Shown here: in pieces, positions 1 through 30,412 of the stretch
Layout: each line of letters begins with the position of its first letter
Numbering within the stretch: the stretch's first letter is position 1
Sequence record: KP869113
Reading direction: 5' to 3' (one strand)
DNA: 64,000 nucleotides
DNA from: Escherichia coli O157 typing phage 15
Notes under the pieces: generated by a model
The model's input: the letters and a program-made list of their open reading frames with translations, nothing else
What the model was told of the DNA's origin: nothing
The model's database searches: none
Made by a program: the position numbers and the translations under genes

Positions 1-299
1 TCTCTTCCTAATACATGGTAAGAGAAGTTATAAGCTTTGTTTCTCCAGAGCCATCCAACTCTCTGCATGTAGACACCAAGCTTACCAATCTTTCTAATCT
101 TAGCCCATCGTTTGATATGACCTGCATCACCATCAATTGGGTTGTCATAAGTCTCCATCCATCTGAACCCGAAAGGTAAGTGTCCTTTCTTCTCACTGTA
201 GAATGGAACTACAAAAGGTGCTAAGATAACTGCTAAGATTGCTGCAAATGGCTCTAACAAAGCTAAGAAAATCCATGAAGCATACTTTAAGTATCTCAT
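1..299 (-). CDS. Membrane protein, 3' end runs off window; same gene as 29027..29362
   Basis: ATG at 299..297; hand translation MRYLKYASWIFLALLEPFAAILAVILAPFVV... has an N-terminal hydrophobic helix; window 1-76 is identical to 29286-29362, where the frame continues into ORF 29027..29353. Confidence 0.45.
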   Translation of the reverse strand, partial: MRYLKYASWIFLALLEPFAAILAVILAPFVVPFYSEKKGHLPFGFRWMETYDNPIDGDAGHIKRWAKIRKIGKLGVYMQRVGWLWRNKAYNFSYHVLGR

Positions 300-538
300 T
301 GTCTAATCCTCGTAAGGAGGTAAATGTTATTATTCGTTTCTAAACCTTCTGGTAAAACTGTCTCAAAAATAACACTCTTCAGATGTCTACCACCAAAACA
401 ATCACGTATAAAGCTTTCTACTCTAGCGGGGTCACATAAGTATCCCACTTTTAAGAAAATGTGGTGTTCAACACCAATGACCCTGACAAACTCAATACTC
501 TCACAGTTTTCATGTTCAACTACTGTTAATGTTTGCAT
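296..538 (-). CDS. Hypothetical protein (80 aa)
   Basis: Complete ORF in supplied track, same strand as and abutting the membrane-protein gene; no recognisable motif. Confidence 0.35.
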   Translation of the reverse strand: MQTLTVVEHENCESIEFVRVIGVEHHIFLKVGYLCDPARVESFIRDCFGGRHLKSVIFETVLPEGLETNNNIYLLTRIRQ

Positions 539-555
539 AGTATCACCTTTTTATC

Positions 556-631
556 TGGCGCAGGATAAGGGATTCGAACCCCTATTAACAGCTTCGTAGA
601 CTGTTGCTCTTTCCATTTGAACTAATCCTGC
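556..631 (-). tRNA. tRNA-Arg (anticodon ACG)
   Basis: Hand-folded cloverleaf: 7-bp acceptor, T-arm GGGGTTCGAATCCC, anticodon stem ACAGT/GCTGT, loop CTACGAA, encoded CCA. Confidence 0.7.
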
Positions 632-636
632 AAAAT

Positions 637-715
637 TGGTGTTCCAAGACGGATTCGAACCGTCACTAATACAAGGTTTGAGCTTGCATCCTCTGCCAAT
701 TGGGATACTGGAACA
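637..715 (-). tRNA. tRNA-Leu (anticodon CAA), tentative; short variable arm
   Basis: Acceptor GTTCCAG/TTGGAAC, T-arm GACGGTTCGAATCCGTC, anticodon loop CTCAAAC; only 78-79 nt, no long extra arm. Confidence 0.5.
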
Positions 716-790
716 TGGTACTCACTAAAGGACTTGAACCTTTTTCTTCATCTTGTAAGGGTGATGTTTTACCATATAAACTAAGCGAGT
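716..790 (-). tRNA. tRNA-Val (anticodon UAC)
   Basis: Acceptor ACTCGCT/AGTGAGT, T-arm AAAGGTTCAAGTCCTTT, anticodon loop CTTACAA, CCA encoded; a 3'-truncated copy lies at 30083..30151. Confidence 0.6.
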
Positions 791-797
791 ATGAAAG

Positions 798-897
798 NNN
801 NNNNNNNNNNNNNNNNNNNNNNNNNNNNNNNNNNNNNNNNNNNNNNNNNNNNNNNNNNNNNNNNNNNNNNNNNNNNNNNNNNNNNNNNNNNNNNNNN
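798..897. other. Assembly gap (100 N)
   Basis: Run of N. Confidence 0.99.
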
Positions 898-1425
898 TTC
901 TAACAAGCCTTCTTAACAACCTATACAATCACCTTAACCATCTCTCTATACGCTCTTAGAAGCCTCTATACACCCCTTAATCTCTATGTCAGCTATGATA
1001 CTCTCTATAGGTGTTCACTAGGCACTACTAAGCCTCTATATAGACTGTTTTAACAAACTTAACAGGAATATCTTTACAGACCTTATCTCACAAGGTCTAA
1101 CACGGTACTAACAAGGTATCTTATAAGCCTGTTTCTACCTGTATTTTTAAAAGACTGTATAAGTAATTATTCAGAATTTTAAAATTTTTATAAAATAAGA
1201 CTGTCAAGTCATTTTTTAGGGTCTTTGAAGGAACTCAAAAATATCTGTAGAAGATGTATATCTGCTTGGTAGCCCTTAACAGCTCCCTTACAAGTACTTT
1301 GCAAAATTTTAAAATATCCTTAACAACATCTTAACAACTCTCTCAAGCTCTTAACATCTCTTCAAAGGTCTTAACAGTTTCTTAACAGAACTAACAAGGA
1401 TGTAACAGTTTCTTAACAGTTGATA

Positions 1426-1525
1426 NNNNNNNNNNNNNNNNNNNNNNNNNNNNNNNNNNNNNNNNNNNNNNNNNNNNNNNNNNNNNNNNNNNNNNNNNNN
1501 NNNNNNNNNNNNNNNNNNNNNNNNN
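1426..1525. other. Assembly gap (100 N) flanked by identical sequence
   Basis: About 78 bp TCTTAACATCTCTTCAAAGGTCTTAACAG... occurs immediately before and after the N run. Confidence 0.95.
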
Positions 1526-1907
1526 TCTTAACATCTCTTCAAAGGTCTTAACAGTTTCTTAACAGAACTAACAAGGATGTAACAGTTTCTTAACAGTTGA
1601 TACATAGACTTTACAGAATCTTAACAGATGACTAACAAGAGCTAACAAGTTAATTTTAAAGAGTTATTTTGTAGGGATTGGTAACAATACCAATTAAGAT
1701 AATTAACAAGTTCCTAACAAGTGTTTAATCTTTTTAACAAGCTATTAACATGGTCACTATCTCTTTTCTTATCGTTCCCTTTCTCTCTTAGTGATTCTCT
1801 AAACATACCTCTTAAAAGCTCTCTATAACTCTTTATAAGCTCTTTTAAGCCTCTTCCTAGTATTTACCCCTCAACTGTATGGATAGCTCTTTATAGGGCT
1901 TTACAGG

Positions 1908-2007
1908 NNNNNNNNNNNNNNNNNNNNNNNNNNNNNNNNNNNNNNNNNNNNNNNNNNNNNNNNNNNNNNNNNNNNNNNNNNNNNNNNNNNNNNNNNNNNN
2001 NNNNNNN
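1908..2007. other. Assembly gap (100 N) flanked by identical sequence
   Basis: About 80 bp CTTTATAAGCTCTTTTAAGCCTCTTCCTAG... occurs on both sides. Confidence 0.95.
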
Positions 2008-2733
2008 CTTTATAAGCTCTTTTAAGCCTCTTCCTAGTATTTACCCCTCAACTGTATGGATAGCTCTTTATAGGGCTTTACAGGAGCTTTTAAGGCTATG
2101 TCAAAGGTTCTTACAAGGCTTTTACGTGGTCTTAACAGAGATTTAACAAGGGGCTAACAAGTTGCTAACAAGTGCCTTAAAAGCATAACTATGTAGGGAT
2201 TGTTAAGAAATTGTTAAGAAAATGTTAAGGGGGCTAGCATTTACGTAACTTTTAAGCTACTTCAAAGTAACTTTATAGCCCCTATAACATACTTTTAAGA
2301 CACTAACAAGCCCTTTTTAGTAGTTCACAAGATAGCTAACGAGATGATAAAGCTCACACCCTTATAAGATTCTTTTAAGGCTCTAGAAAGCTCTATAAAG
2401 GGCTTTTTAGAGTGGGTTAATATGATTGCTTAAGTTAGGTTGATAAGGCTGTTATAGGGCTTTATAGAGCGTTTAAATGGTTGCCCTTCCCTTTCGGGTT
2501 ATGGGCTTATATTTAAGTTGATTTGATAAGGGGTTATAGAGTAAGCTATAGAGTTATTGCTTTTAAGGTACGGGATAGATTCTAGGAAGGAAAGGAAAGG
2601 GATTGTATAGAGTCTCTTTATAGACGTAAAAAAGCCCCTATGAGAAGGAGCTTTTCAGGTATCTGGGGCTATTTAGCCCCGCTGCGTCGATTAGTTGTAA
2701 CCTTGTTTGCTGTAGTACAGAGAGACAATCAAG

Positions 2734-2833
2734 NNNNNNNNNNNNNNNNNNNNNNNNNNNNNNNNNNNNNNNNNNNNNNNNNNNNNNNNNNNNNNNNNNN
2801 NNNNNNNNNNNNNNNNNNNNNNNNNNNNNNNNN
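2734..2833. other. Assembly gap (100 N) inside the thymidylate synthase gene
   Basis: Run of N; the ThyA-like frame is open from the first base after the gap. Confidence 0.95.
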
Positions 2834-3496
2834 ACTTGGGGTGAAAATGATGGGGAACGCTGGACTATCTGGTCAGATGATTTTAAACGCTGGTTAAGTT
2901 CTAATTATTCTTCTGAACAAGATTGGTTAGAAGATGCAGGTGGGAGAATCTATGGGGTTCAGTGGAGAAACTTTGAAGGTCATAATGGTTGTGTTGTAGA
3001 CCAGCTAGAGGCCTTAGTAACGAAGATGAAGGGTGATATCACAGACCGTTACATGCTTGTTAATGCTTGGAATGCAGCAGATATTGCAGCAAACTCAATG
3101 GCTTTAGCACCTTGTCATGTTCTGTTTCAGATTTATATCACTAATGAGGGTGAAGTTGACTTACAGTGGTATCAACGTTCAGTAGACACCTTTTTAGGAC
3201 TTCCGTTTAATATTGCGTCTTATGGTTTCATCTTAGAAGTTCTTTGTAAGATGACTGGATACACTCCACGGTACTTGATAGGTGTCTTTGGAGATACTCA
3301 GATTTATCAGAACCATATGAAACAGGTTTATGAACTGATGAACAATGAAGAGTTCCATGCACCTACTTTTGAGATTGGTGTACAGCTTAACACCCTGAGT
3401 GACCTGAAACATCTTACTGCAAGTGATTTTATTGGTGGTATTAACAACTACCAACATGCAGGGAAGATTGAAGCACCTCTGTCAGTAGGTAAGTAA
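2834..3496 (+). CDS. thyA: Thymidylate synthase family protein (ThyA-like), 5' end lost in gap
   Basis: Translation carries ThyA hallmarks: YGVQWR, AWN, ALAPCH (catalytic Cys), QRSVDTFLGLPFNIASY, GDTQIY-NH; frame open from 2834; about 80 N-terminal residues missing. Confidence 0.8.
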   Translation, partial: TWGENDGERWTIWSDDFKRWLSSNYSSEQDWLEDAGGRIYGVQWRNFEGHNGCVVDQLEALVTKMKGDITDRYMLVNAWNAADIAANSMALAPCHVLFQIYITNEGEVDLQWYQRSVDTFLGLPFNIASYGFILEVLCKMTGYTPRYLIGVFGDTQIYQNHMKQVYELMNNEEFHAPTFEIGVQLNTLSDLKHLTASDFIGGINNYQHAGKIEAPLSVGK

Positions 3497-3504
3497 AAAC
3501 AAAA

Positions 3505-3540
3505 AAGGCTCCTTTTTACGGGAGCCTTAAATTTTATTTT
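3505..3540. terminator. Bidirectional rho-independent terminator between convergent thyA and the late operon
   Basis: GGCTCC-loop-GGAGCC hairpin flanked by A-run upstream and T-run downstream. Confidence 0.6.
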
Positions 3541-3905
3541 TCAGTATTCTTTGTGTTCTTTTCAGTAATAGCTTGCAAGGCTGATACTGATTGAGCCAGA
3601 TTGTTCACACTGTCAGAGAATTTATCAAGGGTTTTGGTAAGTTTTGCGTTTTCACCCTTAACATTCTCTAACTGAACTTTCTGGTTCTCCATCCCTAGCT
3701 GAATCAATCTCATGTCAGACTGTAAATCACGAATAGCTGAATAGTTACTTTTGGAATAATTATCTAGCTGCTGTAACTTTGTTGTGACAGACACTTCCTG
3801 CTTACCACTTGAGACTTGCATAGTGGTATACATCCCAATAACACTAAAAATACCAACTACAATTGCACCAATATTATTTTTAAAAGCTTCCTCTAGCCAC
3901 TTCAT
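3534..3905 (-). CDS. Membrane-anchored coiled-coil protein (123 aa)
   Basis: N-terminal hydrophobic helix IGAIVVGIFSVIGMY, then Q/K/E-rich helical region; last gene of the tail operon. Confidence 0.45.
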   Translation of the reverse strand: MKWLEEAFKNNIGAIVVGIFSVIGMYTTMQVSSGKQEVSVTTKLQQLDNYSKSNYSAIRDLQSDMRLIQLGMENQKVQLENVKGENAKLTKTLDKFSDSVNNLAQSVSALQAITEKNTKNTEK

Positions 3906-4100
3906 TTATTTCTCCCCCTTAAAAGCTTTTTCTAAGTTATCTACGAACTCATCATCAATAGGTGTATCTGTTTTACTCGCAAGGTATCTTGCAAGCTTAA
4001 AGAACACTTTCTCAATCATGTATTCACTTAGAAGGGATAAAATGAGTTTCCAGAAGAAGCTACCTAGATTTTTTAGAAGAATTGCTAGGATTGTAGACAT
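3906..4100 (-). CDS. Small membrane protein (64 aa), possible holin-like
   Basis: Hydrophobic segment ILAILLKNLGSFFWKLILSLL with charged C-terminus; function not established. Confidence 0.35.
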   Translation of the reverse strand: MSTILAILLKNLGSFFWKLILSLLSEYMIEKVFFKLARYLASKTDTPIDDEFVDNLEKAFKGEK

Positions 4101-4179
4101 TTAATCACCTCATCAGCCAAGATGGTGAGAATACCCATAAAGAATATTAACACCATCTTAACAATCAGTCAACAAGGGA

Positions 4180-6795
4180 TTAAGCAGTTCTTACCCAAGC
4201 CATTAACTTATAGAACTGGTTAGTAACACTAAATGCAGAACCAGAACCAGTACCACCTGTGTTACCGCTAACTGTGTGGCTGTGAGCACCAATATCAACA
4301 GTGTGGCTGTGGTTACCTGTTGTATTCGTTACACCAGACCAGTTTCTTGATGCGTTGAAGTTGACAGGGATACCATTAGTAAAGTTGTTACCAGTATACC
4401 CTTTAGAACCTGCCTGACTACCGAGGTAGAATGCACCACTTGCTGTGTAGAAGCTACTAGCGTCACTTCTGAAGTAACCAAATGAACCAGTAATCTCCAT
4501 AGTACCTCTGTTGTGGTTGTGGTTACCAGTTGTGCTAGAAGTCTTAGTACCATAGTCAAATGATGAAGTAGTAGCAGAGAAGCTGTGCGTGTGTGAAGGT
4601 AAGTTACCAACAGACAACGTTACAGAGTCTGAACCACCAGTTGTAGCAACATCTGAACCGTTTGCTGCTGCAATTCTAATAGTTCTACCAACACCATTAT
4701 TCAGGTACGTCCAAGTTAACCCAGGAAGTGCTGTGTTTGGGTTGACATTACTGTTAAACCACGTCACAATACCTACTGGATAGATTTTATTCAGGTCTGT
4801 AGAGTCACTAATTGCTTCTGCAATCTTCTGGTCAGTCTCTGCTTTAGTGTATGCACCAATATCTGAAGGGGTTGGTTTTTGCAAACTTGTGTAGTATTTT
4901 GCAATTGTACCCTTCACAATACCTTGTGGAGCATCATCAAATGTCTGTGGGACTTCAAACAACTGTACACTTGCATTACTAGAAGACTGAACCCTTGTCG
5001 TTGTGCTGTTTTGATACGTACCAGCAAGATAGTAAATATCATAGGTGTCTCCAGAAGTATTCACATAACCAATATCCCTGACAATGGTGTTCTCTGATGT
5101 TCTCCAAGCAACAACATTTAAGCCCTTTGGATTGTTATTTGAAGTTCGCAGAACAATTTCACATTTACCTGCTTGGTTTGGTGTATTAATATTAAAACCT
5201 GACCCACCAAATACCTCAATAACAGCAGTGGATGCTGATTGTGGCATCACAACAGTGGCAATTTTAGCCCACTTATCAGTGTTTCCCACATTGAAGCTAG
5301 TGCTTCTGATTCTTAGGTATCTACTATCACTAGCACTTTGCGTAAAGTATCTAGCATCTAAGTTAGAGAAATCTGAAGGTTGAACTTGTCCAGCAATAGT
5401 CAATGTTTTGTTAATGTATGATGTTGTATTCCCGAGAACCAATTGGGTTCCAGAATAACTGTTATTTAGGGTAACATCATTCGTGTCAGCACCACCAACA
5501 CCAATCCACCATCTTGATACATTAGTAGTGTCCACACCACGAATATATAATGGTCTATTCTGAGTAGAGTTTTTAACAATCAGACCTTCATTATCCGTAA
5601 CAACTGTCTGTACACCATTAAAAGTATTCCTTGCATTAGTTCTTGCAATCGTACTTAATGTTGCTACCGGAATATATCTAGAGTCAATGTTAGCCCAATC
5701 TGAAGGTTGGACTTGTCCAGTGATTTGCACAGTTTTATTGATACCAATAGTAGTACCTAGTGAAACCTGTGAACCTGTAAGGTAGTTATAAATGTTTAGA
5801 CGTGTCTCGTCAGAATCTGTACCAACATACCATTTATTTGTTCCATCAGACTTCTTACCGAGAATGTAAAGTGCTGTATTTGCATCAGTATTCTGCAAAG
5901 TAATGGCATTAGCATTCTTCTTAGCAACAAGGTTAGTGAAAGTGTTAGCACCTGTAAAAGTATTATTGCCAGCTAACTGTGCAAATCTCTGATTAGCTGC
6001 CGTCTGAGTAAAGTATCTAGCATCTAAGTTAGAGAAATCAGAAGGCTGAACTTGACCAGTGATTGCTAAAGACTTATTAACAGAGATATTACTTGCAACA
6101 GTCAAGACTGAGTTGTATTTGCTATTGTACAGCTTTACTTCGTCAGAGCCATTACTACCAATACCAACCCACCATCTAGCCGAACCATCTAGGTTTACAC
6201 CTTCAATATATTGTGCATTATTTGCATTTTGGTTTCTAAGGCGAAGTAAGTTAGCATCACCTTGAATGTTCTGAGTCCCAGAGAATGTGTTTGTGATAGC
6301 AAGTCTTGCATATCTTGCGTCATTCTCTTCATTAGTTCTCATACCAAGCTCATTAGGACTTGGCTTATTCAGAGTATGATAAACAGTTGCTGACCTTGAA
6401 GCATCTGCAATAGTTAGTTTAAGACCACTTGCGTTAAGTTTAAAAGTCTTTAAAACATCCCCAATAGTAATCTCAGAAGAACCTGTAGGGTCAAATACTG
6501 CCTTACCACCGTAAAGTAACTTGACAATACCTAAATCCCCCGTCATAGTGCTTCCAGCAATCTGAACAAACCTTTCTAGTTTGAAGGAAGCTAAGAAGTC
6601 TTGATAGGTCATTCTACGGTCTTCGTCACCCAACATTTCAGGTCTTTTCTTAACTCTGATGTGCAATAGGTCTTCTGAACGAATTGTGTCGATTGAGTTT
6701 AACTGACTCAATTTGTAATCTGCCATTATGAATTTTCCTCTTAAAAGGGGCTTTATAGCCCCTGTAAAGAAATTAAGCTGTTCTCTGCCACACAT
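4180..6795 (-). CDS. Long tail fibre protein (871 aa) with internal repeats and HxH tip
   Basis: Three about 100-aa repeats (NKxLxITGQVQPSDFSNLDARYFTQ); C-terminal HTHS/HSHT motifs (GNHSHTVDIGAHSHTV); C-terminus shared with the 6773..7948 protein. Confidence 0.7.
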   Translation of the reverse strand: MCGREQLNFFTGAIKPLLRGKFIMADYKLSQLNSIDTIRSEDLLHIRVKKRPEMLGDEDRRMTYQDFLASFKLERFVQIAGSTMTGDLGIVKLLYGGKAVFDPTGSSEITIGDVLKTFKLNASGLKLTIADASRSATVYHTLNKPSPNELGMRTNEENDARYARLAITNTFSGTQNIQGDANLLRLRNQNANNAQYIEGVNLDGSARWWVGIGSNGSDEVKLYNSKYNSVLTVASNISVNKSLAITGQVQPSDFSNLDARYFTQTAANQRFAQLAGNNTFTGANTFTNLVAKKNANAITLQNTDANTALYILGKKSDGTNKWYVGTDSDETRLNIYNYLTGSQVSLGTTIGINKTVQITGQVQPSDWANIDSRYIPVATLSTIARTNARNTFNGVQTVVTDNEGLIVKNSTQNRPLYIRGVDTTNVSRWWIGVGGADTNDVTLNNSYSGTQLVLGNTTSYINKTLTIAGQVQPSDFSNLDARYFTQSASDSRYLRIRSTSFNVGNTDKWAKIATVVMPQSASTAVIEVFGGSGFNINTPNQAGKCEIVLRTSNNNPKGLNVVAWRTSENTIVRDIGYVNTSGDTYDIYYLAGTYQNSTTTRVQSSSNASVQLFEVPQTFDDAPQGIVKGTIAKYYTSLQKPTPSDIGAYTKAETDQKIAEAISDSTDLNKIYPVGIVTWFNSNVNPNTALPGLTWTYLNNGVGRTIRIAAANGSDVATTGGSDSVTLSVGNLPSHTHSFSATTSSFDYGTKTSSTTGNHNHNRGTMEITGSFGYFRSDASSFYTASGAFYLGSQAGSKGYTGNNFTNGIPVNFNASRNWSGVTNTTGNHSHTVDIGAHSHTVSGNTGGTGSGSAFSVTNQFYKLMAWVRTA

Positions 6796-7948
6796 ACACT
6801 ACAAAAGATGGCTGCTCAACACTGAAAGCTTGACCACCACCAACAGAACCAGATGTCCCTGAGTGTGTATGCTCAGAGCTAGAAACAGTAACAGTGCCTG
6901 TATGACTGTGCGAACCAATATTAACAGTGTGGCTGTGAGCACCAATTGCGACAGTATGGCTATGAGCACCAGATGATGCAGTTGTACCTGAGAAGCTATG
7001 GGTGTGAGCACCAGCTAAATCAGTATACATAGCATTACCAACACCAGCATCAGCAGATGCAGTAATAGCGTTTGTGCCACCCCTATCATTACCCCTCATA
7101 GGGACTCTATGGTTGTGGTTACCAGCATTACTTGTTGTGCCACTAAACGTGTGAGTGTGAGCACCAGCACTATTAGTCGTTTTTGTACCGTAATCAAAAG
7201 TTGATGTACTTTTTGAACCATAATCAAAACTAGAGATAGATACACTTGCAGAGTGTGTATGACCACCACCTGTTAGATAGATAGAGTGAGTATGTGCTGG
7301 TAAATTATTATTTGTTAATGCTACAGTCTGAGAACCAAACGTTGAACCAACAGGTCTAGAATCTGTATCATAACCAACTAGTGCTCTACCTTTAGAAACT
7401 AACTCCCAAGTACCTCCACAAAGCAAGTAAGTGGATGGGTTAGCAGAGTTAACAGATAGATGAATAGTCCCTACTGGATATGACGCTTGGATAGCTTTGT
7501 ATAAATTATTAACTGCTTTCGCGGTAGCATACTTATCAGCATCTTCATTGTACAGATTAGATGTTGTCCAGTTCTGAACATTACTTAAACCAACCTGTGC
7601 TTTCGTTGTATTGTGTGGGTTACTTTTGTCGTCAATATGTTGCTGAATTAAGTTATTCACTTCCTCTGACGACATAATTTGTAGATTTGCTCTTGCCTCA
7701 GCAACACTTACAATATCTGACAAGTTATTAGCTGCAACTAATTGAAGAGAGTTAATAACATTATCAAGACCTACTTGTGATTTAGTTACACCATGAGGGT
7801 TATTCCTCAAAGATGCGTGAGGTGCTAACAACTGCTCAAGCGTACATCTTTTATCCTCAACACCTTGCTTAAGGTGGAAGATATCACTCAAATCAACTGG
7901 TAAGGCCGCTTGTGGCAAGGCACTAATTTGAATTTCACCTACTGCCAT
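6773..7948 (-). CDS. Tail fibre protein (391 aa) with fibre repeats, collar-like domain and HxH repeats
   Basis: NPHGVTKSQVGLDNV / NPHNTTKAQVGLSNV repeats; YPVG...LLCGGT collar-like motif; many AHTHS/AHSHT repeats; C-terminus ...YVWQRTA parallels the 871-aa fibre. Confidence 0.7.
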   Translation of the reverse strand: MAVGEIQISALPQAALPVDLSDIFHLKQGVEDKRCTLEQLLAPHASLRNNPHGVTKSQVGLDNVINSLQLVAANNLSDIVSVAEARANLQIMSSEEVNNLIQQHIDDKSNPHNTTKAQVGLSNVQNWTTSNLYNEDADKYATAKAVNNLYKAIQASYPVGTIHLSVNSANPSTYLLCGGTWELVSKGRALVGYDTDSRPVGSTFGSQTVALTNNNLPAHTHSIYLTGGGHTHSASVSISSFDYGSKSTSTFDYGTKTTNSAGAHTHTFSGTTSNAGNHNHRVPMRGNDRGGTNAITASADAGVGNAMYTDLAGAHTHSFSGTTASSGAHSHTVAIGAHSHTVNIGSHSHTGTVTVSSSEHTHSGTSGSVGGGQAFSVEQPSFVVYVWQRTA

Positions 7949-7950
7949 TA

Positions 7951-8253
7951 TTAAGCTCCTACATATTCATATGTGTAAAGGTTTCTTGTACTTGTTGATG
8001 CAGTCCCTGTCTCAGACTTAATGAGATTCCAGCCATTAGCCACTAAATCTGGTTGCTCAGTTGCATATGAACGAACTTCACCAACAGTGCCATTTACTTT
8101 ATTCAGCAGGTAGTTGATAATATAGTTGAACCACTGTCTACCCATAGGCTCACCCTTTAAAAGACCTGTCTCTTGAACTTCCGGTGGTGGTAAAACTTTT
8201 AACTGATTACCATCAGTATCTACTTCGTTTGTAGACCAATTTAGAACTGCCAT
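7951..8253 (-). CDS. Tail fibre / baseplate-associated protein (100 aa)
   Basis: Position between baseplate genes and fibre; translationally coupled. Confidence 0.4.
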
Positions 8254-9107
8254 TAAGAATTTCCTTCTTGTTGTGATTTATCTTTTCTGCCTTTGACAAT
8301 TTGTGCAACCTCAGCCATGATTCCATATGCACCACCTGCAATAGCTTCTTTACCAGCAATGAAATAGCCACTATTATTAGACCTATCTACAGTCATATAA
8401 TCATCGCTCTGTGGGTTTGCTGTTCTGTCAACCTTAAAGTAACCATCAATAACACCAGCATCTGCAAGACTCCCTACTAGGTTGGACTCCAGAGAGCCAC
8501 CAGTGTTATTTGTTACCAGACCCCTGTTAGCATCAGTTACAAACCAGTTCTCTTTATCATCAACAATAGCAAGTGATGAATCAGCAACCTCTACAGGTGT
8601 CCAAGCAGTCCCATTTAAAGTAACATCTCTTAAGATAACAGCGGAACCAGTGGTTGTTGCAGAAATCTTTGACAGTGTATATGCAGCATCAAGAACGCTT
8701 TTTCTAGTATTAATACGGATAACGATACCACCAGTCTTAGGAGTAATATGCTCAAAAATCTGAGAGAAAGTTGCACCATACAATGTCATAATTGCTTTTT
8801 GCAAGAATGTTGGAGTAGTATCAGAACGTCTTAGGAAGATTTGGATATAAAGCATAGCTCTGTATGTTTCATCATCAGCACCTAAAGGTCTAGGAACTTT
8901 AATCAGTGAGCCAATATTATCAAGTTGTTGACCTACTGACGTCCTGATATTTCTCTCTGTGTGCATCTGCCAGCAAACATCCTCTAGTGTTTGTAGCTCA
9001 TCAGTGATTGCTTTCAAGATACTTGTATAGATAAATTTATCTTTAAACTGTGTTACAGTCCTTTCATCAAGTGTTTTATAATAAACACTATCAATCTTTT
9101 CAAACAT
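8253..9107 (-). CDS. Baseplate wedge protein (gpI / Mu gp48-like), by position
   Basis: 284 aa immediately downstream of the J-like baseplate gene. Confidence 0.45.
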
Positions 9108-9109
9108 TA

Positions 9110-10578
9110 TTACTCCTTAGTGATGGTATACTGGCTACTTTCCCAAACAGTATATTGGTCACCGTCAACAGTAATTCTTGCTGTAGTATATTGTCCGTCA
9201 CTAGGTGGAACTGATTGGCTGTTTGATAATGCTACTTTCACCTCATTAATCTCAATACCTTTGATTACGTCATAGATGTACCCATAAATTCTGTTAGGGA
9301 TAACATCATTACCAACCTTAAGAGTTCTTCCGTAGGCGTTAATACCTTGCACAATACTATCTCTGATATCTTCTTCAGGGATTGTCAAACTTTCTTCGTC
9401 ATATAATGAGTAAGACACCTTAACAAATGCGTATTTTGGTGTTGGTCTGCTAAAATAGATATTATGTGCCAGACCACCTAAATCATAGGCTGTACCAAAA
9501 ATTGAGCCATAAGCCCTGATACCAGCAGGTTTTGTATCCCAGATTGCTTGAGCAACATTATCATTTTGACCACCAACTACAACAATCTTAAAAGATTTTG
9601 GTGGAAGACCTTCTGAGTTTGTCTCTTCAGTATCATTTTCAACACCTGAAGCATCTGAGACACCTTGAACTCTTTTAACAGCAGCTACAATTGCATCCAA
9701 AGTCCCTACACCAGTAACTGCTAAGGATTCTAAATATCTCTGTCTAAGTTCTGTGTCAGTTTCTTCGTTTCTACCAGTCGTTAAGTCATACCTGTTATAG
9801 ATGCTGTCAAGACCATCAACAGTTGTCTCAATCTCAATAAGAGTTCCAGCTAAAGCAGGAATAGCACCAACCTCTTCAGCTACTACATCTGAGATAGTTG
9901 TAATCTTTGTAAAGGTCAGAAACGTTGTCGCAGTGACAACCATAGGATTTGTTCTTGCAATGATATCACCCTCATCTTTATAGACTCTTAATGCGGCTCC
10001 ATCATTGATAACTTCTGCTTTTGCTACAATACCACCATTAATAGCCTCTGCTAATTTAGTTAGGAGTGTGGTAATTGTGTCTGATGAGGTTGGTTTATAT
10101 GAGAAAATAACGTTATCAATAATAATAACATAATCTGCATCAGTTCGTAAAGAGTTAACTTCAAGAACAGCTTCAACACAATATGATGGGGTAAGGGTAA
10201 TATTGTTAACTGGATAAAAGATATTTCCAGCAGTACTTCTCAATCTTGTTGTTGAAGAGATGGTAGCACCAGTTGTTCCAGTGAACTCAACCTGACCCCT
10301 TGTTGCCTGAGCAACATATCTGTATACAGCATTCAAAGCTGTAATATCATCAAGGTTAAATCCTTCAGCCTTGTCAATTGTCCCGCCGTCATAGATTTCT
10401 GATAGAATCTCGTGTGTATCTGCTAAAGACCTTGCAATTGAAGCTAGGAAGAGACCTAATTGGCTATCTTCAGAGACGTCAAGGTTTGGTGAAATATCTC
10501 TAAGAAGTCTTGATTTGATATTATCAAAAATTTCCTGATATCTTAGAGTTTGTAATCCTGTTGTAGTTAATCCTGCCA

Positions 10579-10579
<1 letters not shown>
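9110..10579 (-). CDS. Baseplate J-like protein (Mu gp47 / P2 gpJ-like)
   Basis: 489 aa, synteny after gpW-like and gpV-like genes. Confidence 0.5.
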
Positions 10580-15963
<5,384 letters not shown>

Positions 15964-15964
<1 letters not shown>

Positions 15965-16203
15965 TACATTTTTCCTGCTCTTCTAAGTTCGTTGTAAGCA
16001 ATTTCCTCTTTATACGACCTCTGAATCTCAAGAAATTGTCTCAATGATAATAAATCAGAGAATGTCATAGCAAAGAGTTGGTCAAGTGTTTCTTTACACC
16101 CTTCCATACCATAAATAGCAAGCACAAATTTCATCTCGTCTGCTTCTTCATAGGTTGCCTCTACAGCAGCATCAGTTAGTGGTGTCTGTAGAGTGTTACC
16201 CAT
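15964..16203 (-). CDS. Tail assembly chaperone, downstream (frameshift-extension) part
   Basis: 79 aa in the -1 frame relative to the upstream chaperone; that frame stays open back to the slippery site. Confidence 0.55.
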
Positions 16204-16205
16204 GT

Positions 16206-16604
16206 TTACTGAGAAGTTAGGCTTTTGAAAATGCTTGCTTCGAAAAAACTTCCGAAGTTTGCCTCCAGCGCAAATGCTAAGTAATCAATAAACTCACCGT
16301 AGTTTGCTTGGAAGTACGTATCAATATTAAGTGGGAAGTCATCGACAGTTGCCCCTTGAAATAGTAATGTAGCCATTTCTTCAAGGTTAATTTCTTCAAT
16401 TCTGTCAAAACAAGCTTCAACAAGTTCTTTAAATGGAACCATTGGAGCTTCTTTCTTGTCTTTATCAGTCAGACTTGACAGCATCTGTGCAAAGGTTGGA
16501 ACAACAATTTTACCCAACTTCATAGACATCTTAATACCATCTCTCGCCCCAAGCAGAACGATATTTACTTTCTTACCATTAATTACTCTAGATTCTGTTT
16601 TCAT
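16206..16604 (-). CDS. Tail assembly chaperone (G-like)
   Basis: 132 aa between tube and tape measure; contains the slippery site near its 3' end. Confidence 0.55.
   Translation of the reverse strand: MKTESRVINGKKVNIVLLGARDGIKMSMKLGKIVVPTFAQMLSSLTDKDKKEAPMVPFKELVEACFDRIEEINLEEMATLLFQGATVDDFPLNIDTYFQANYGEFIDYLAFALEANFGSFFEASIFKSLTSQ
16242..16248 (-). other. Candidate -1 programmed ribosomal frameshift slippery heptamer (U UUU UUC)
   Basis: Minus-strand ..AGT TTT TTC GAA.. about 13 codons before the stop; the -1 frame reads FFRSKHFQKPNFSVNMGNTLQ into ORF 15964..16203 with no stop. Confidence 0.5.
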
Positions 16605-16619
16605 TGTGATTCCTTAATA

Positions 16620-16665
16620 CTTTTAAAAGAAACAAAAAAGGGGAAGACCTTTTAAAGTCTCCCCC
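16620..16665 (-). terminator. Rho-independent terminator after the tail tube gene
   Basis: Minus-strand hairpin AAGGGGGAGAC..GTCTTCCCCTT followed by TTTTTTGTTTC. Confidence 0.55.
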
Positions 16666-16677
16666 TTATAGGATTTA

Positions 16678-17124
16678 TTAAACACTTGACGCTGGAATTG
16701 TAGAAGTGTAGTCTAGCTTCTCACAACCAAAAATCCAAGTTTTAGAGTTCTGGTCACGACCAAGTTCAATCTGTGGTAATTCCTGCAACCAAGCATTAAT
16801 ACCAGTTGCCAGAACAGAGCCTGATGGGTCGTAGATTACGAAGTTAGAAGAGATATCTTCTTCAAGTTCCATATTGTCTTGTTTAGCTTGAATTGCAGAA
16901 AGCATCTGGTTAGAGAGAGAAGTCTGCATTAGCTCAATCTCAATAGTACCTGTCTTGTCTGCATTTCTTGTCAGAGCAACTTGACCACCTGCACCTACAA
17001 CTGGTGTCACAAGTGGTGATGTTCTCTGTAGACGTAAGAATGAGTCTGGGGCAAAGCCTTCAATGGCAATACCATTCCAGCTACACACAACGTCTTTAGG
17101 GGAATATTGCTGATACATAGCCAT
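16678..17124 (-). CDS. Tail tube protein
   Basis: 148 aa directly downstream of the sheath gene, followed by a terminator. Confidence 0.5.
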   Translation of the reverse strand: MAMYQQYSPKDVVCSWNGIAIEGFAPDSFLRLQRTSPLVTPVVGAGGQVALTRNADKTGTIEIELMQTSLSNQMLSAIQAKQDNMELEEDISSNFVIYDPSGSVLATGINAWLQELPQIELGRDQNSKTWIFGCEKLDYTSTIPASSV

Positions 17125-17139
17125 TCCAATTTACCTCTA

Positions 17140-18492
17140 TTATTCGTAAGCCACTGTACCTTTCAAGTCAACATCCAAGATAGCCCCTGCTAAGATACCT
17201 GAGAAGGTAACGTCTTTCAGGATACGAGCTTTCTTGTCTGCCAAAGCAACTTGAGAGGCTTTAGGAACATTAACTGTGTAAGATGACAGGAAGTTTCTGT
17301 TGACTGCTCTTTGCAGAGAGGTTTCAATGACTTGACGAATACGGGTAATACCAGTATCATCATAAGTAATCTTACCACCCTTCTGGTTAATTAGCAAGTC
17401 TCTCAGAGAAGTTTTCAGGTCTGATTCTAACCAGTCAACACCACGGATGATATCAATCCATTCCCCACCAGAAGTAATCCCTCTACGAACCACTGGAACA
17501 CCACCATCAAGGTCAATAAAGTTACAGTGACGTGCATCTAAAGCTGACTTCTGAATACTTGTCAGAGGTCTCTGATTAGATGGCTGTAGAGAAGCAGCTA
17601 CGCCAGTTAACTGTGCGTTACCCCAAGCAATTGAACCTGCATCATACGGAGCGCCATAAGCAATGTATGCCATTTCTGGATAGTCTTCTGCTGCTGTGTG
17701 ATGCCACAAGCAAACGGTACGAGTGTACTGACTCTTAGCAAGCTGTGCTGGAACATCATTTGCACTGGCTAATTCTGTACCTTGTAGGGCTGTTACATCA
17801 GAGTTAGCTGTAAAGAAAATCTTCTTACGAGCTTGAATCTCAGAAGCCATTGCTAAGACAAACTGTTGAGTTCTATCTTCTGCTGCAATGAAATACCAGT
17901 CAGTTGAATAAGCCTCAATAGCTGCCAGAGCAGTCGATGCTGTGTCAGCAGTTGTACTTGCAATTGACACTGTTTGTGCTGTAGTGGTAACCTTCACGAA
18001 GTCATTGTCACCCGCTTTGGTGATTACCATTGTTGCTGAACCACCAGCACCAGTTACATTGACGGTAACAAGGTCTTTTACAGAAGGCTCTGCTTCAATC
18101 TGAGTTTTAAGCTGCTGTAGCACCTTCTCAGCAGTATCTTCTGACTGTGAAGTGTACTGGAATGGCTGAGAAACTCCACCGCTCACAGCTACAGTTAAAG
18201 AATAGTCGGTGCTCTCAGTAACCTCATCAGGAATTGATACAGTGTACTGCATAGCACGTCTACCAATATAAAGCTGAGTTACTTTAGGAGTCTGACTCCA
18301 AAGTTGTTTAGCAGCCTTATATGCAGCAGAGTTTTCATCGAAATCTTCAGCAACTTCAGTTAAGGAAGTGTAACCACGGACTCTTTCTTCAAAGTTATCT
18401 GTTGAAGCTAAAAATAGTGGTAGCCCAAAACCTTCTCTTGTAGTTCCTGCGGTGTTCAATGTAATATCTACATTAACAATTGGATTCCACAT
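17140..18492 (-). CDS. Tail sheath protein
   Basis: 450 aa preceding the tube gene in a module that also has V/W/J-like baseplate genes. Confidence 0.5.
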   Translation of the reverse strand: MWNPIVNVDITLNTAGTTREGFGLPLFLASTDNFEERVRGYTSLTEVAEDFDENSAAYKAAKQLWSQTPKVTQLYIGRRAMQYTVSIPDEVTESTDYSLTVAVSGGVSQPFQYTSQSEDTAEKVLQQLKTQIEAEPSVKDLVTVNVTGAGGSATMVITKAGDNDFVKVTTTAQTVSIASTTADTASTALAAIEAYSTDWYFIAAEDRTQQFVLAMASEIQARKKIFFTANSDVTALQGTELASANDVPAQLAKSQYTRTVCLWHHTAAEDYPEMAYIAYGAPYDAGSIAWGNAQLTGVAASLQPSNQRPLTSIQKSALDARHCNFIDLDGGVPVVRRGITSGGEWIDIIRGVDWLESDLKTSLRDLLINQKGGKITYDDTGITRIRQVIETSLQRAVNRNFLSSYTVNVPKASQVALADKKARILKDVTFSGILAGAILDVDLKGTVAYE

Positions 18493-19092
18493 TTATTTTA
18501 CCCCTTTGGAGTCTACATCTAGATGGATAGTATATTCTGGTGGCTCTTGTCCTTCTTCGTAAACTAATTCACCATCAACAATGACACGTTCAATAATTCC
18601 CCCACGTTCATCTTTCAGGACTGAATTTTTTACAAGAGTTACAACAAGAGGCGCAGAATTTTCGAAATCTGTATTGAGATAGGTATAGTCATTCGGGATA
18701 GCTCCAGTGTCTAAAACTGTAGCTCCTGTCTCTTCAAGAATTAAATCTCTGACTGAACTCATCTCTAATCGTTGTTTAAGCTCAAGCATAATACTGTGAG
18801 CACCTTTACCATTTACCGTAATTAATACTGGAATCTGAAAAGCAATTCTGTAGCAAACTACATCATCCTCAACAAACTTATCAAGAACCCAACCATAAGG
18901 TGTTGCAGCATCTTGACAATATACGGTAATAAATGGCTGGTCAGGTTTTAAACCTTTGTCATTTGAGTTATCAGAAGGGTAAGCTCTAATTACATTTGGT
19001 CTATTATTTTTATCACGAGCTAGTCTGTGACCAATAACATCCACTAAGGTTCTAACTAGACCTTTTTCAAGTTCTGCTGTTTCTAACTGCAT
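18493..19092 (-). CDS. Neck / tail completion protein (199 aa)
   Basis: Position between head and tail modules. Confidence 0.35.
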   Translation of the reverse strand: MQLETAELEKGLVRTLVDVIGHRLARDKNNRPNVIRAYPSDNSNDKGLKPDQPFITVYCQDAATPYGWVLDKFVEDDVVCYRIAFQIPVLITVNGKGAHSIMLELKQRLEMSSVRDLILEETGATVLDTGAIPNDYTYLNTDFENSAPLVVTLVKNSVLKDERGGIIERVIVDGELVYEEGQEPPEYTIHLDVDSKGVK

Positions 19093-19468
19093 TCATTTTA
19101 TCCCTTCTAATAATGATATATTCATAATGGGACGTATGGGCTAATTGCTGTGACCAATCCATAGTCATAAATACTTCATACTCATGACCATCAATCATAA
19201 CAATGTCAGACTCATTCCACTCTACATCATCTGAAGTTCTAAGTTTATATGTAGTATACAGGATTCTTGTATCGGTAAGCCTGATACCTTCCGGTAAAGC
19301 AATCTGTGTACCGTTCTTTACAGAACCTTTGATATATGGCTGGATATTACCTTTGCAGTTAACCTCTACAATATCTTGTGAAGCTACCCAATCACCATCA
19401 TCATTGTAATAACCGTCTTCAGAGACTTTACGCTTTACTACAAAGCTGTGTCTGTTTAAGAGTCTCAT
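19067..19468 (-). CDS. Neck / head-tail joining protein (133 aa)
   Basis: Position. Confidence 0.35.
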   Translation of the reverse strand: MRLLNRHSFVVKRKVSEDGYYNDDGDWVASQDIVEVNCKGNIQPYIKGSVKNGTQIALPEGIRLTDTRILYTTYKLRTSDDVEWNESDIVMIDGHEYEVFMTMDWSQQLAHTSHYEYIIIRRDKMNAVRNSRT

Positions 19469-19947
19469 TTCTTAATACCCTTCTTAGTAGAAATTTTATA
19501 AGCAAGGTTATCTCTTAAGTCACCTGTCTCAACAAGAGGTGCGTTAAAGCCTTTTTTCTTGACTGTGGAAGGTGCGTTAGGAGGGAGGATAGCAGAATTA
19601 CCAAAACCCCTTTTAATTGCCTTCTGAGCATTCTTTGCAAATGCTTCTAAAGTATTTGAAGGGTCTGTGTTGAGACTGCTAAGTTGCTTATAGAGATTCT
19701 TCTTAGTCTGCTCTAACAAGGTCTGTCTGTTTAGCATCATAGTGATTTCAAACAACCTACGATATACTTTACCAGAAGCTGAAGGAACCCCAATAACTTC
19801 TTGTAAATACATTAAAGCAGGATAAGAAAAACCAGAGCTATGTTGACCTTGTTCTTGAAAATACCCAACTTGAGCATTAGCCGTTTGCAAGTTCTTCATA
19901 GCCCCGACTAATTTTGCTCTAGCGGGGTGAATAACCCTTTTAACCAT
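19465..19947 (-). CDS. Head-tail connector protein (160 aa)
   Basis: Position. Confidence 0.35.
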   Translation of the reverse strand: MVKRVIHPARAKLVGAMKNLQTANAQVGYFQEQGQHSSGFSYPALMYLQEVIGVPSASGKVYRRLFEITMMLNRQTLLEQTKKNLYKQLSSLNTDPSNTLEAFAKNAQKAIKRGFGNSAILPPNAPSTVKKKGFNAPLVETGDLRDNLAYKISTKKGIKK

Positions 19948-20396
19948 TATTCATCTCGCTCGATAATAAATACGCCATTAACACGGTTGCAGTAATCTCT
20001 GCCTTCGTATCTGGCAGCATCACCATATTCTGTGTATTTCTTGACAGAGCAAGGATTTTGACGACGCATATCAATGTCGCACTGATTAATACCACCTGCA
20101 TAGGGTAGTCCTGAAACAGAGCTTTTAACAAGGTCGTCATAAACAGCTTTCAGAGATTTGAATCTGGAAGAGTTACGTAAATAAACACCACCAACCTTCT
20201 CATCTCCCATCTTGGCTACTTGAAAGAGTAAATATTTAAGAGCTTTGATGGCTGCTTTCTTTTCATCCTTTCCAGATTCTAGATAGAACCACTCTAGCAC
20301 AGACTGCTCAATAAGAATTTCATCATTATTGGTGTCTGTGCAGAGGATTCTTACTCTATCAAGAGGGTTATTGGCTGGGTCGCCTGTATAGCACAT
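19947..20396 (-). CDS. Head completion protein (149 aa)
   Basis: Position just downstream of the major capsid gene. Confidence 0.35.
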   Translation of the reverse strand: MCYTGDPANNPLDRVRILCTDTNNDEILIEQSVLEWFYLESGKDEKKAAIKALKYLLFQVAKMGDEKVGGVYLRNSSRFKSLKAVYDDLVKSSVSGLPYAGGINQCDIDMRRQNPCSVKKYTEYGDAARYEGRDYCNRVNGVFIIERDE

Positions 20397-20417
20397 TCAT
20401 AACCCTCCTTAAGAATA

Positions 20418-21524
20418 TTAGTCTGGTTTAGCGTCAGAACGAACGTCTACCAGCAACTGAGGACGTGTGCAGTATGGCAGCATGTAAGAGTGAGCTTCAA
20501 AGTCAATACCTTCGTCACGGTCTTTTTCGTATTCGAATACGTACAGTTCCTGACCAAGTGTATTTGCATAACCCATCTTAGGGCATGGACCATATGCCAC
20601 TTCGAAGATGTTGTTAGCTTCACCCAGCATAGAAACGTTAGGGAAAGCATGACCTACACCAACAGTTGCTGCTACACTATCAATGCTCACCAGAGTGTGA
20701 ACCTTACCACGCTTGTCTTTGAACTTACCGTTGTACTGGACAAACTTAACACCACCGTAGTAGAAAGTGTTCATGTGAGCCTGAACGCCGTCAGTACCAC
20801 CAGTTCTCAGAGAACCAGTAATCTGTTGCCAAGCCAGCGGAGTCTGCTGTGCAAGATAAGCGTCACGAATCTTAGGGTGTTTAACCAGTTTGCTGAAGAA
20901 TAAGCGGTCAACAACTACGTGAATTTCTTCACCGTTGATTACAGTGCCAGTCTTAGCTTCGTCTTCCATGTGCATACGCAGTTCTTCAATAGCAGCGTCA
21001 ATGTCAGCATTAGGGTTGTCAAGGTCGAAGTAAACAGTCTTCTTCTCAACGTCGAACTGCTTGTACAGGTCAGCATACAGAGTACCACGAGCATCAACAA
21101 CTTTACCCTTCAGAGCTTGCATAAACAGGAACTCACGAGTAATATCGAACTTGGTACGAATCTTCATCAGCTTCTTAGCACGTACTACAGCTTCAGTAGT
21201 CAGTTCGTTTGCAGTTCCTGGCTGACGTACACCCTGAATCTCATCAGGAGTAATGCTTTCAACTTCTTTGAAGTACATCATTGGGAAGCTGATTTGACGA
21301 ACACGCTCAGGTGCGCTAGTCTCTGCTTTACGGCTATCGCGGTCTACCGCATCAAGCAAGCTAACATCCCAATCAGTCAAGTCCATAAGGAAAGTAGTTT
21401 GGGTGATTGGTGCTGAACGGAACAGACCTAAGTTGGAAATATACCCATAAGTATTTGGGATAGACTGGACTTCACCAGTAAGGTCAGCAAGGAAAAATCT
21501 GCTTTTTTCAGAATTAGTCAACAT
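20418..21524 (-). CDS. Major capsid protein (lambda gpE-like family)
   Basis: 368 aa; preceded by decoration-like and S49 protease genes in lambda-like order; C-terminal region resembles gpE-family capsids from memory. Confidence 0.65.
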   Translation of the reverse strand: MLTNSEKSRFFLADLTGEVQSIPNTYGYISNLGLFRSAPITQTTFLMDLTDWDVSLLDAVDRDSRKAETSAPERVRQISFPMMYFKEVESITPDEIQGVRQPGTANELTTEAVVRAKKLMKIRTKFDITREFLFMQALKGKVVDARGTLYADLYKQFDVEKKTVYFDLDNPNADIDAAIEELRMHMEDEAKTGTVINGEEIHVVVDRLFFSKLVKHPKIRDAYLAQQTPLAWQQITGSLRTGGTDGVQAHMNTFYYGGVKFVQYNGKFKDKRGKVHTLVSIDSVAATVGVGHAFPNVSMLGEANNIFEVAYGPCPKMGYANTLGQELYVFEYEKDRDEGIDFEAHSYMLPYCTRPQLLVDVRSDAKPD

Positions 21525-21557
21525 TGTAAAATTCTCCAGAATGTCTTATTATTGTTA

Positions 21558-21935
21558 TTACAGGCCAGTTGGTACGAAATCAATACCTTTAGCAGCCAGA
21601 GCTGTCTTGACGGCAGCAGCATCAACGCTCGCTTCAAGAGTAAGCAGGTCTTTCAGTTCTGCATCACGGTGGATACCTACCACTTTCAACTGACCATGAT
21701 AAGACAGTTGCAGGTCTGCGTAGAAATTAACGATACATACAGAGTCTGCTTGGGCTTCTTCTCCAGCTTGTACCTTAGTACCATCTGCTTTCATAACTTC
21801 ACCTACACGGTATTCTGTTGAAGCAACTGGAGTGTACTCTTTACGAGAGTGGCCTGTTGGGGTAATCTGTTCCCAAAGAATGATATCATTCAGAGGTTCT
21901 CTGTTACCTAACTTAGTAAAACCTTGATATGCCAT
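21558..21935 (-). CDS. Head decoration protein (gpD-like)
   Basis: 125 aa between protease/scaffold and major capsid. Confidence 0.5.
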   Translation of the reverse strand: MAYQGFTKLGNREPLNDIILWEQITPTGHSRKEYTPVASTEYRVGEVMKADGTKVQAGEEAQADSVCIVNFYADLQLSYHGQLKVVGIHRDAELKDLLTLEASVDAAAVKTALAAKGIDFVPTGL

Positions 21936-21946
21936 TATTGTGTTCC

Positions 21947-23293: not shown

Positions 23294-23304
23294 TTTTACT
23301 CACC

Positions 23305-23637
23305 CTATTTGTTTAAATCTACAGAGACTGAAGAGATAACATAAATACCTTCTTCAGCAAAGAATTGAGGTTTGCTAAGAGCACCAGTTGCCACGCATTT
23401 ATCGTTAGCATCCCACAAGCTATAGTGTGAGACCGTTGCAGAAGCTGGAACAGTAATATTAACTGTGTCTTCTGAGGCAATTAAGCCGTTATCCGGTTCA
23501 GAAAAATAAATAGCCACTGGCTGAGTAACCTTATTTGCTGTAGGGTCTGCCGTTGGGTCTACATTGTGTAAAATAATAGTCGTTGGGGTTAGCGTGGCGA
23601 GGATTTTATTCTTACCATCAATAGTTAATGTTCCCAT
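23305..23637 (-). CDS. Hypothetical protein (110 aa) inserted in head module
   Basis: ORF between portal and protease genes. Confidence 0.35.
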   Translation of the reverse strand: MGTLTIDGKNKILATLTPTTIILHNVDPTADPTANKVTQPVAIYFSEPDNGLIASEDTVNITVPASATVSHYSLWDANDKCVATGALSKPQFFAEEGIYVISSVSVDLNK

Positions 23638-24137
23638 TAATTAAACCTTACTTTTTGTTTAAGGACTGTTGAATGGTTACCAGATTCATCTACCACATTT
23701 ACAATCATATCATATACTTTACCTTTGACAAGTACTTTGTAATCATTTTGTGAAAAAATGTATTCAAGTCTGTTTGTTTCTTTATTAACTGTCATTGGAG
23801 ATTGAAATGCAGTGTCGAGGGTAATGAAAGCGGCTTCAATGCTATTAACATTGATACGTTTATTCTCGCAGTTATATAACTTTACACCCAAAAGGCATGA
23901 ACTGTCAAATGGAATTTTAACAATTTCACTACAATTTCCTGAAATAAACGGTTTCCCACTCATTGGAGCATCAAGTAACCTGCAAATAGTGAAAACGTCA
24001 GAGGTTTCACCATCACTTACATAACCTGAAAGGCTGACCCTTGAGCCAACCTCTACAGATAATTTGTCAGTGATAATAAGAACACCTCTATACGAATGCA
24101 CTCGTGTAGCATTTGAAATAGAGATAACTTCAGCCAT
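23637..24137 (-). CDS. Hypothetical protein (166 aa) inserted in head module
   Basis: ORF between portal and protease genes, coupled to portal stop. Confidence 0.35.
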   Translation of the reverse strand: MAEVISISNATRVHSYRGVLIITDKLSVEVGSRVSLSGYVSDGETSDVFTICRLLDAPMSGKPFISGNCSEIVKIPFDSSCLLGVKLYNCENKRINVNSIEAAFITLDTAFQSPMTVNKETNRLEYIFSQNDYKVLVKGKVYDMIVNVVDESGNHSTVLKQKVRFN

Positions 24138-25612: not shown

Positions 25613-25619
25613 CTAGCTA

Positions 25620-30324: not shown

Positions 30325-30331
30325 ATTAATT

Positions 30332-30406: not shown

Positions 30407-30412
30407 ACTAAT

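Follow-up and report, generated by a model that had tools for sequence, protein, structure and literature searches.

The word-rich non-coding region of Escherichia coli O157 typing phage 15 is probably a Felix O1-type genome-terminus locus, broken up and misplaced by draft assembly

The word-rich region found at positions 898-2733 of the draft sequence of Escherichia coli O157 typing phage 15 (KP869113) is most probably the genome-terminus (packaging) locus of a Felix O1-type myovirus, which was broken into three contigs and misplaced by the draft assembly (we put the probability of this reading at about 0.85). The window, by which we mean the whole 64,000-nucleotide stretch of DNA that was analysed, is a draft scaffold of a Felixounavirus: the first contig of the region matched 252 phage records, all from Felix O1-type phages (Felixounavirus and relatives), with E. 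coli O157 typing phage 1 (ETP1, KP869100) as the best match at 99%, and the whole window is 97-100% identical to ETP1. By alignment, the central 613 nt of the locus is homologous to the short exact direct terminal repeat found in Felix O1-type phages. Since this terminal repeat is already established, the locus is a known feature that was mis-scaffolded. A preliminary description of the region, made from the letters alone, was thus partly confirmed in what it observed and partly supported in how it interpreted the observations.

One locus split by a k=77 assembly

A scan of the whole window for N runs detected four runs of 100 N (Table 1) and one run of 720 N at 29363-30082, showing that the window is made of six contigs: contig 1 (1-797), contig 2 (898-1425), contig 3 (1526-1907), contig 4 (2008-2733), contig 5 (2834-29362) and contig 6 (30083-64000). 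Exactly 77 nt are identical at the contig ends joining 2 to 3, 3 to 4, 5 to 1 and 1 to 6, and this 77-nt identity at every contig join is what a de Bruijn assembly with k=77 leaves behind. The region 898-2733 corresponds to contigs 2, 3 and 4 with two 100-N spacers, with bases 1349-1425 duplicated at 1526-1602 and bases 1831-1907 duplicated at 2008-2084 as contig overlaps; its size had been given as about 1.8 kb, but once these two spacers and 2 x 77 nt of overlap are removed, its unique sequence amounts to 1,482 nt.

The first 77 nt of contig 2 (898-974) are also identical to 43882-43958 within contig 6. The 77-bp exact copy that had been reported, one base off, at 43881-43957 does exist as an identical stretch, but it is an assembler overlap and not a second copy, since its length equals that of every other join and since the segment occurs only once in the near-identical complete genome of ETP1. 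That the 77-bp identity and the second word block might instead be a true dispersed repeat, with two separate copies in the genome, is hardly credible: two identical 77-nt stretches are indeed present in the window as given, but 77 nt is the overlap length at all four other contig joins, contig 2 starts precisely at the shared segment, and the contiguous genome of ETP1, a phage of the same type, has a single copy with both "blocks" contiguous.

Four contigs shorter than 1 kb precede the main scaffold, ordered by ETP1 coordinates, and the location of the region 898-2733 between tRNA genes and thyA is an artefact of this scaffold order. The word-rich stretch thus owes its wrong placement to the fragmentation of the draft assembly. 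Other features of the scaffold can be read in the same way. Contig 1 carries tRNA-Arg, tRNA-Leu and tRNA-Val genes and shares 77-nt overlaps with the end of contig 5 and the start of contig 6, so that it belongs in the 720-N gap; the tRNA-Val genes at 716-790 and 30080-30153 are then one gene seen twice, and a count of 28 tRNA genes is one too high. Similarly, the large contig starting at 2834 begins inside the thymidylate synthase gene (ETP1 position 73604; thyA2 at 73367-74266), which is cut by the scaffold break and therefore not truly truncated.

Comparison with ETP1 located the true position of the locus. On the ETP1 map, contig 5 corresponds to 73604-88531 plus 1-11894, contig 1 to 11818-12614, and contig 6 to 12538-25825 and then directly to 27198-47239. 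In ETP1-segment coordinates, window positions 43000-43958 correspond to 3119-4077 and 43959-45000 to 5450-6491, while contigs 2, 3 and 4 correspond to 4001-4521, 4452-4811 and 4737-5449, together covering 4001-5449. Merged, the small contigs supply 1,405 nt that are absent at the 43958/43959 junction of the main contig, and the restored locus aligns with ETP1 as a single 3,409-nt block with 98.3% identity, all differences in the restored 3.4 kb being inside the terminal repeat. On this alignment, the two "blocks" are a single non-coding locus split by assembly, with its true position at 43958/43959. The second block had been placed where two gene blocks converge; this convergent site is real, but it belongs to the same single locus.

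The 82-aa gene that borders the locus on the right points to the same order. Contig 4 must abut position 43959, because the gene ends at 2691-2733 and its remainder lies at 43959-44164: in the main contig the protein ends with HYHYWG-EVYRGF before the stop codon, against HYHYWG-DLIVSLYYSKQGYN in the merged order. This gene, which is conserved in the family, is intact in the merged order only, whereas contig 6 as given adds a foreign C-terminus. Contig 4 ends flush at 43959, without the 77-nt overlap that would be expected of a graph bubble. The simplest explanation for the direct join may be a circular closure: the main scaffold would first have begun with the last 77 nt of contig 4 and ended with the first 77 nt of contig 2, both of its ends abutting the unresolved locus, and it would then have been circularised after trimming a presumed 77-nt overlap and re-opened elsewhere. 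Such a closure would explain why contig 4 lies flush against 43959, and the break of the assembly inside the repeat would be explained if the sequenced stock was heterogeneous there.

We also considered that the 43958/43959 junction may be real and correspond to a 1,405-bp deletion genome coexisting with full-length phage, the small contigs then coming from a full-length minority. The main contig passes through the join without N, and the fact that contigs break inside the repeat suggests that the sample may contain more than one haplotype. We nevertheless regard this as improbable, since such DNA, lacking both cut sites and all of the terminal repeat, could not be packaged, since it would carry a truncated version of the conserved 82-aa gene, and since none of 218 related phage records contained the junction, nor did any viral, genome or metagenome contig of three public contig collections, the chimeric ORF that spans it being equally absent from the record. 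In addition, the junction shows no microhomology, and a true bubble would leave 77 nt common to the end of contig 4 and to the sequence from 43959 onward, which is not the case. A microhomology-mediated deletion was rejected as a candidate: CACCCC is found near both breakpoints, but the junction, TATACACC^TCACCCC, differs from the expected recombination product.

The tRNA region at 30083-32920 displays 93-97% identity to ETP1, with gaps, compared to 99.5-100% for the rest of the genome, and is a mosaic or variable segment. Taken with the variable terminal repeat, this segment suggests that the sequenced stock may contain a second haplotype.

The k=77 draft assembly accounts for both the 77-bp "second copy" and the unusual position of the region, and a false lead is removed. 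Users of this sequence should restore the locus, as the false join removes the ends of the genome and cuts a gene short.

Table 1. Features of the restored locus and of the scaffold around it (window coordinates)
Feature	Position	Strand	Content or basis
Left end of locus, true position	43647-43958	+	Terminator at ~43655-43680; first CTCTATA and TAACAA words
Assembler overlap, 77 nt	898-974	+	Identical to 43882-43958; sequence single in ETP1
Left flank of terminal repeat	975-1267	+	CTCTATA and TAACAR words; ends with conserved GTATATCTGCTT before the left cut
Predicted terminal repeat, part 1	1268-1425	+	Starts GGTAGCCCTTAACA; CTTAACA words at 11-nt spacing, 1321-1414
Predicted terminal repeat, part 2 (most variable)	1603-1907	+	TAACAR at 1622-1735; 22-nt insertion at 1672-1693
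Predicted terminal repeat, part 3	2085-2234	+	Four TAACAR at 11-nt spacing, 2133-2166; ends ...TGTTAAGGGGGC
Right flank of terminal repeat	2235-2690	+	Starts with conserved TAGCATTTACGTAAC; CTTTTAAG/CTTTATAG words in both orientations
82-aa gene, 3' part (ETP1_00063 homologue)	2691-2733	-	Last 13 codons and stop; ETP1 comparison
82-aa gene, 5' part	43959-44164	-	ETP1 comparison
Scaffold spacers, 100 N each	798-897, 1426-1525, 1908-2007, 2734-2833	.	N-run scan
Large terminase subunit (TerL)	25620-27236	-	Terminase_6N E=2e-43, Terminase_6C E=4e-33

A gene-free locus with a conserved terminal repeat

The restored locus is a stretch of 1,674 nt without genes, from the stop of the last plus-strand gene (43646) to the stop of the last minus-strand gene (2691). 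Both flanking gene blocks converge on it and each ends in a rho-independent terminator, at ~43655-43680 on the plus strand for the left one (3774-3799 in ETP1-segment coordinates) and at ~2625-2665 on the minus strand for the right one. The absence of credible ORFs that had been noted holds: the ORF listing of the ETP1 equivalent contains no ORF of at least 60 aa inside the locus, and an Rfam scan of the same sequence detected no family there, its two sub-threshold hits both falling on the left terminator. The near-absence of G that had also been described was overstated: on the plus strand, G accounts for 11.7-12.6% of bases at 898-1907 and 8.9% at 43700-43958, compared to 18.3% elsewhere, and is thus depleted in the left two thirds of the locus (8.9-12.6%), but it reaches 22% at 2008-2733. 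A block of ~100 nt with 80% A+T is found at ~1116-1215, 50-150 nt to the left of the left boundary of the predicted repeat. To the right of the locus, between small minus-strand genes at 44163-49745, at least 11 copies of a ~100-nt cassette are present, in which a hairpin (GGGGAGGGAATGACCTTCCCC) precedes an AGGAG ribosome-binding site on the minus strand; this cassette is probably the counterpart of the 39- and 57-bp direct repeats listed between Felix O1 genes 15-21 (PMC3185647).

The predicted terminal repeat is obtained by joining 1268-1425, 1603-1907 and 2085-2234, which gives 613 nt (merged positions 1253-1865). Exact repeats are found at both record ends of ECP2307 (592 bp), SPJ41 (613 bp), Pr103Blw (581 bp), CRP22 (579 bp) and the Mooglevirus HP1 (570 bp), and these five reference repeats align end to end with merged positions 1253-1865. 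Both boundaries (cuts are marked ^) are identical in the window and in the five references: the left one, GTATATCTGCTT^GGTAGCCCTTAACA at 1267/1268, which also reads CTGCTT^GGTAGCCCTTAACA, and the right one, ATGTTAAGGGGGC^TAGCATTTACG at 2234/2235, which also reads ATGTTAAGGGGGC^TAGCATTTACGTAAC or TGTTAAGGGGGC^TAGC. Each boundary motif occurs once in ETP1, allfine, Felix O1 and Sf19, and in the window the motifs are found at these two places only. A search with the 613 nt returned 273 phage records, 247 of which cover at least 80% of it; the record starts within 15 nt of a boundary for 6 of 60 sampled among them. Over the whole repeat, identity to Felixounavirus and Mooglevirus repeats is 75-93%.

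Among the references, the repeat of Pr103Blw is annotated in its record as a 'short direct terminal repeat' and the method behind it, PhageTerm, is known, while for the other four the boundaries were taken as deposited, so that the set does not consist entirely of independent wet-lab results. For UAB_Phi87, the GenBank sequence does not start at the termini and gave no direct placement of the experimentally determined ends; the five records with the repeat at both ends were used instead. In the literature, a 608-bp direct terminal repeat (DTR) was determined for UAB_Phi87 by Bal31 digestion and run-off sequencing (PMC4837284), DTRs of 581 bp and 613 bp were determined with PhageTerm for Pr103Blw (PMC8303462) and Ro111lw (PMC6454146), and short terminal repeats were inferred for Felix O1 from its genome size (PMC3185647). 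The boundaries given here for typing phage 15 are predictions transferred by homology from these relatives. A terminal-repeat or packaging region was one of the functions proposed in the preliminary description, and this proposal was right: the centre of the locus is homologous to the Felix O1-type repeat, with both boundaries conserved to the base.

The copy in typing phage 15 reaches 613 nt because it has a 22-nt palindromic insertion and three TGTTAAG units at its right end instead of two in ETP1. The insertion (TAGGGATTGGTAACAATACCAA, at 1672-1693) is a palindrome with 7-bp arms inside the terminal repeat. It is also present in wV8 and in typing phages 8, 11 and 12, and absent from ETP1 and eight other repeats; the idea that it was private to this phage was therefore dropped. 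A different 22-nt insertion is found ~100 nt further on in SPJ41 and Sf19. An inverted repeat of 35 nt, imperfect (77% complementary), spans the right cut (~2139-2173 / 2249-2283; ETP1-segment 4876-4910 / 4965-4999) and could possibly form a hairpin or cruciform at the concatemer junction.

Phased words and their possible functions

The iterated words that had been noticed are real, and the motif enrichment that had been suggested as a check was run. Across the 1,674-nt locus, TAACAR is found 26 times on the plus strand and 3 times on the minus strand, when ~1.5 would be expected from the rest of the window. Three words are enriched 35- to 130-fold in the merged locus: CTTAACA (12 versus 0.32 expected), CTAACAAG (9 versus 0.07) and CTCTATA (7 versus 0.11); part 2 of the repeat also contains a block of CTCTATA/CTTTATA/CTTTTAAG words at 1811-1889. 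Nowhere else in the 64-kb window are there more than 3 TAACAR words per 300 nt. The words are also phased: 12 of the 25 gaps between consecutive plus-strand TAACAR words measure 9-11 nt, which was reached in none of 20,000 random placements, and TRF found short arrays with a period of 10-11. This word structure is real and strongly non-random.

Inside the 613-nt repeat, 19 direct and 3 inverted TAACAR words are found, the inverted copies (TGTTAAG) being at 2201-2207, 2212-2218 and 2223-2229 near the right boundary. Across ten phages, the words are more conserved than the spacers (0.895 versus 0.846), these phages being close relatives whose shared ancestry inflates such statistics, and indels between phages come as 11- and 22-nt units. 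The phased arrays and the mirror-image motifs described below are conserved across Felixounavirus and Mooglevirus, and a TAACAR cluster is also found in Kolesnikvirus. In Erwinia phage Omen and Salmonella phage PMBT37, this plus-strand cluster is found at the syntenic position, where gene blocks converge after the lysis genes (segment positions 2400-3000); the Felixounavirus boundary motifs are absent from both of these distantly related Ounavirinae of Kolesnikvirus type. Considering the 11-nt phasing, the strand polarity and the conservation of words above spacers, a binding-site array, another of the functions proposed in the preliminary description, is plausible.

Read inward on opposite strands, the two boundaries look alike: both display TGCTW^G(N3-5)CCCTTAACA, followed by further copies of CTTAACA. 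At the right end, three CTTAACA copies follow each other inward at 11-nt spacing (2201-2229, inverted on the plus strand). The mirror symmetry is only approximate, as the distance from the cut to CCCTTAACA is not the same at both boundaries (2 nt difference). The words are tied to packaging by the fact that the word is part of both cut-site motifs and that the arrays lie between the cuts. The literature that we searched contained no description specific to the word arrays or to the 1.6-kb non-coding region, and none of mirror-image cut motifs combined with 11-nt-phased words.

In T7-type packaging, concatemers are cut and the terminal repeat is copied to both ends, and our proposal for typing phage 15 is based on this scheme. 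TerL (Table 1) would cut replicated concatemers at a fixed left site (CTGCTT^GGTAGCCC) and a fixed right site (GGGGGC^TAGCAT), and the 613 nt between the cuts would be duplicated, so that every virion DNA would have the repeat at both ends, as in T7. Because both boundaries share TGCTW^G...CCCTTAACA when read inward, the same recognition event probably takes place in mirror orientation at each of them, as staggered nicking and strand-displacement copying of the repeat would require. The phased TAACAR words (19 direct and 3 inverted, at 11 nt or one helical turn) would form a one-face binding array, most likely for a packaging or recognition protein. A small terminase was not recognised, and Pfam gave no match for the 66-aa ORF located upstream of TerL. 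Put together, the arrays and the mirror-image motifs may be the cis-acting recognition elements for a T4-type (Terminase_6) terminase that makes T7-style exact repeats, with variations in unit number, in 11- or 22-nt steps, tuning the system; we offer this model tentatively, as a possibility that falls somewhat short of an even chance.

Alternatively, the word arrays may be the iterons of a phage replication origin, where an initiator would bind TAACAR and melt the A+T-rich block, a function that could coexist with the terminal-repeat role. The words are indeed direct, helically phased and strand-polar, the A+T-rich block lies beside them, and the terminators on both sides shield the locus from transcription; phased direct repeats next to an A+T-rich block are thus present as in an iteron-type origin, although such features are not origin-specific. 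On the other hand, the neighbours of the locus are small hypothetical genes and no initiator gene adjoins it, no DnaA box (with at most 1 mismatch) is found at the locus except for one weak match outside the arrays, and the arrays lie within a segment bounded by packaging cuts. GC skew follows gene orientation in the window and shows no switch at the locus, and was uninformative as an origin marker. An origin, which had also been proposed in the preliminary description, is an unlikely function for these arrays.

Another alternative is a role in transcription, the words acting for example as phage-specific promoters or as sites for a regulator, or else small RNAs encoded by the locus. CTCTATA and CTTTATAG loosely resemble A+T-rich promoter elements, and the locus contains annotated small hypothetical genes in some GenBank records. 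However, the gene blocks on both sides are oriented towards the locus and their terminators lie at its edges, sigma-70-like sites in the locus do not exceed the shuffled expectation (9 found versus 7.1 +/- 2.9), the locus gave no Rfam match or ORF of at least 60 aa, as mentioned above, and the words are not clustered upstream of genes elsewhere in the window. A role of this type thus has little chance of being correct.

Comparison with known systems

With the locus read as a packaging locus, the invariant mirror-image cut motifs and the helically phased words of its internal anatomy are a modest addition to what was known, rather than a new kind of element. They nevertheless provide concrete targets for studying how these widely used typing and therapy phages recognise and duplicate their genome ends.

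Like the iteron-type origins of plasmids and phages, the locus has direct, helically phased short words beside an A+T-rich block, but here without an adjacent initiator gene or DnaA box, and the word belongs to packaging cut sites. The likeness to T7 concerns the short, exact and non-permuted terminal repeat that is cut from concatemers, and also the 7-nt word that recurs many times, in a single orientation, within and beside the repeat, in non-coding DNA: the CCTAAAG word of T7 occurs 11 times in the first 400 nt of its genome and 5 times at its right end. The T7 terminal repeat is 160 bp, so that the repeat described here is ~4x longer; it also shares no sequence homology with that of T7, its words are phased at 11 nt with an inverted triplet at the right cut, its terminase is of the T4-type Terminase_6 family, and the virion is that of a myovirus. 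The closest systems are the Felixounavirus and Mooglevirus repeats (UAB_Phi87, Pr103Blw, Ro111lw and HP1), which are like this one in sequence, boundaries, convergent position and terminase type; nothing essential differs, and the copy in the window is collapsed to one and split over three contigs.
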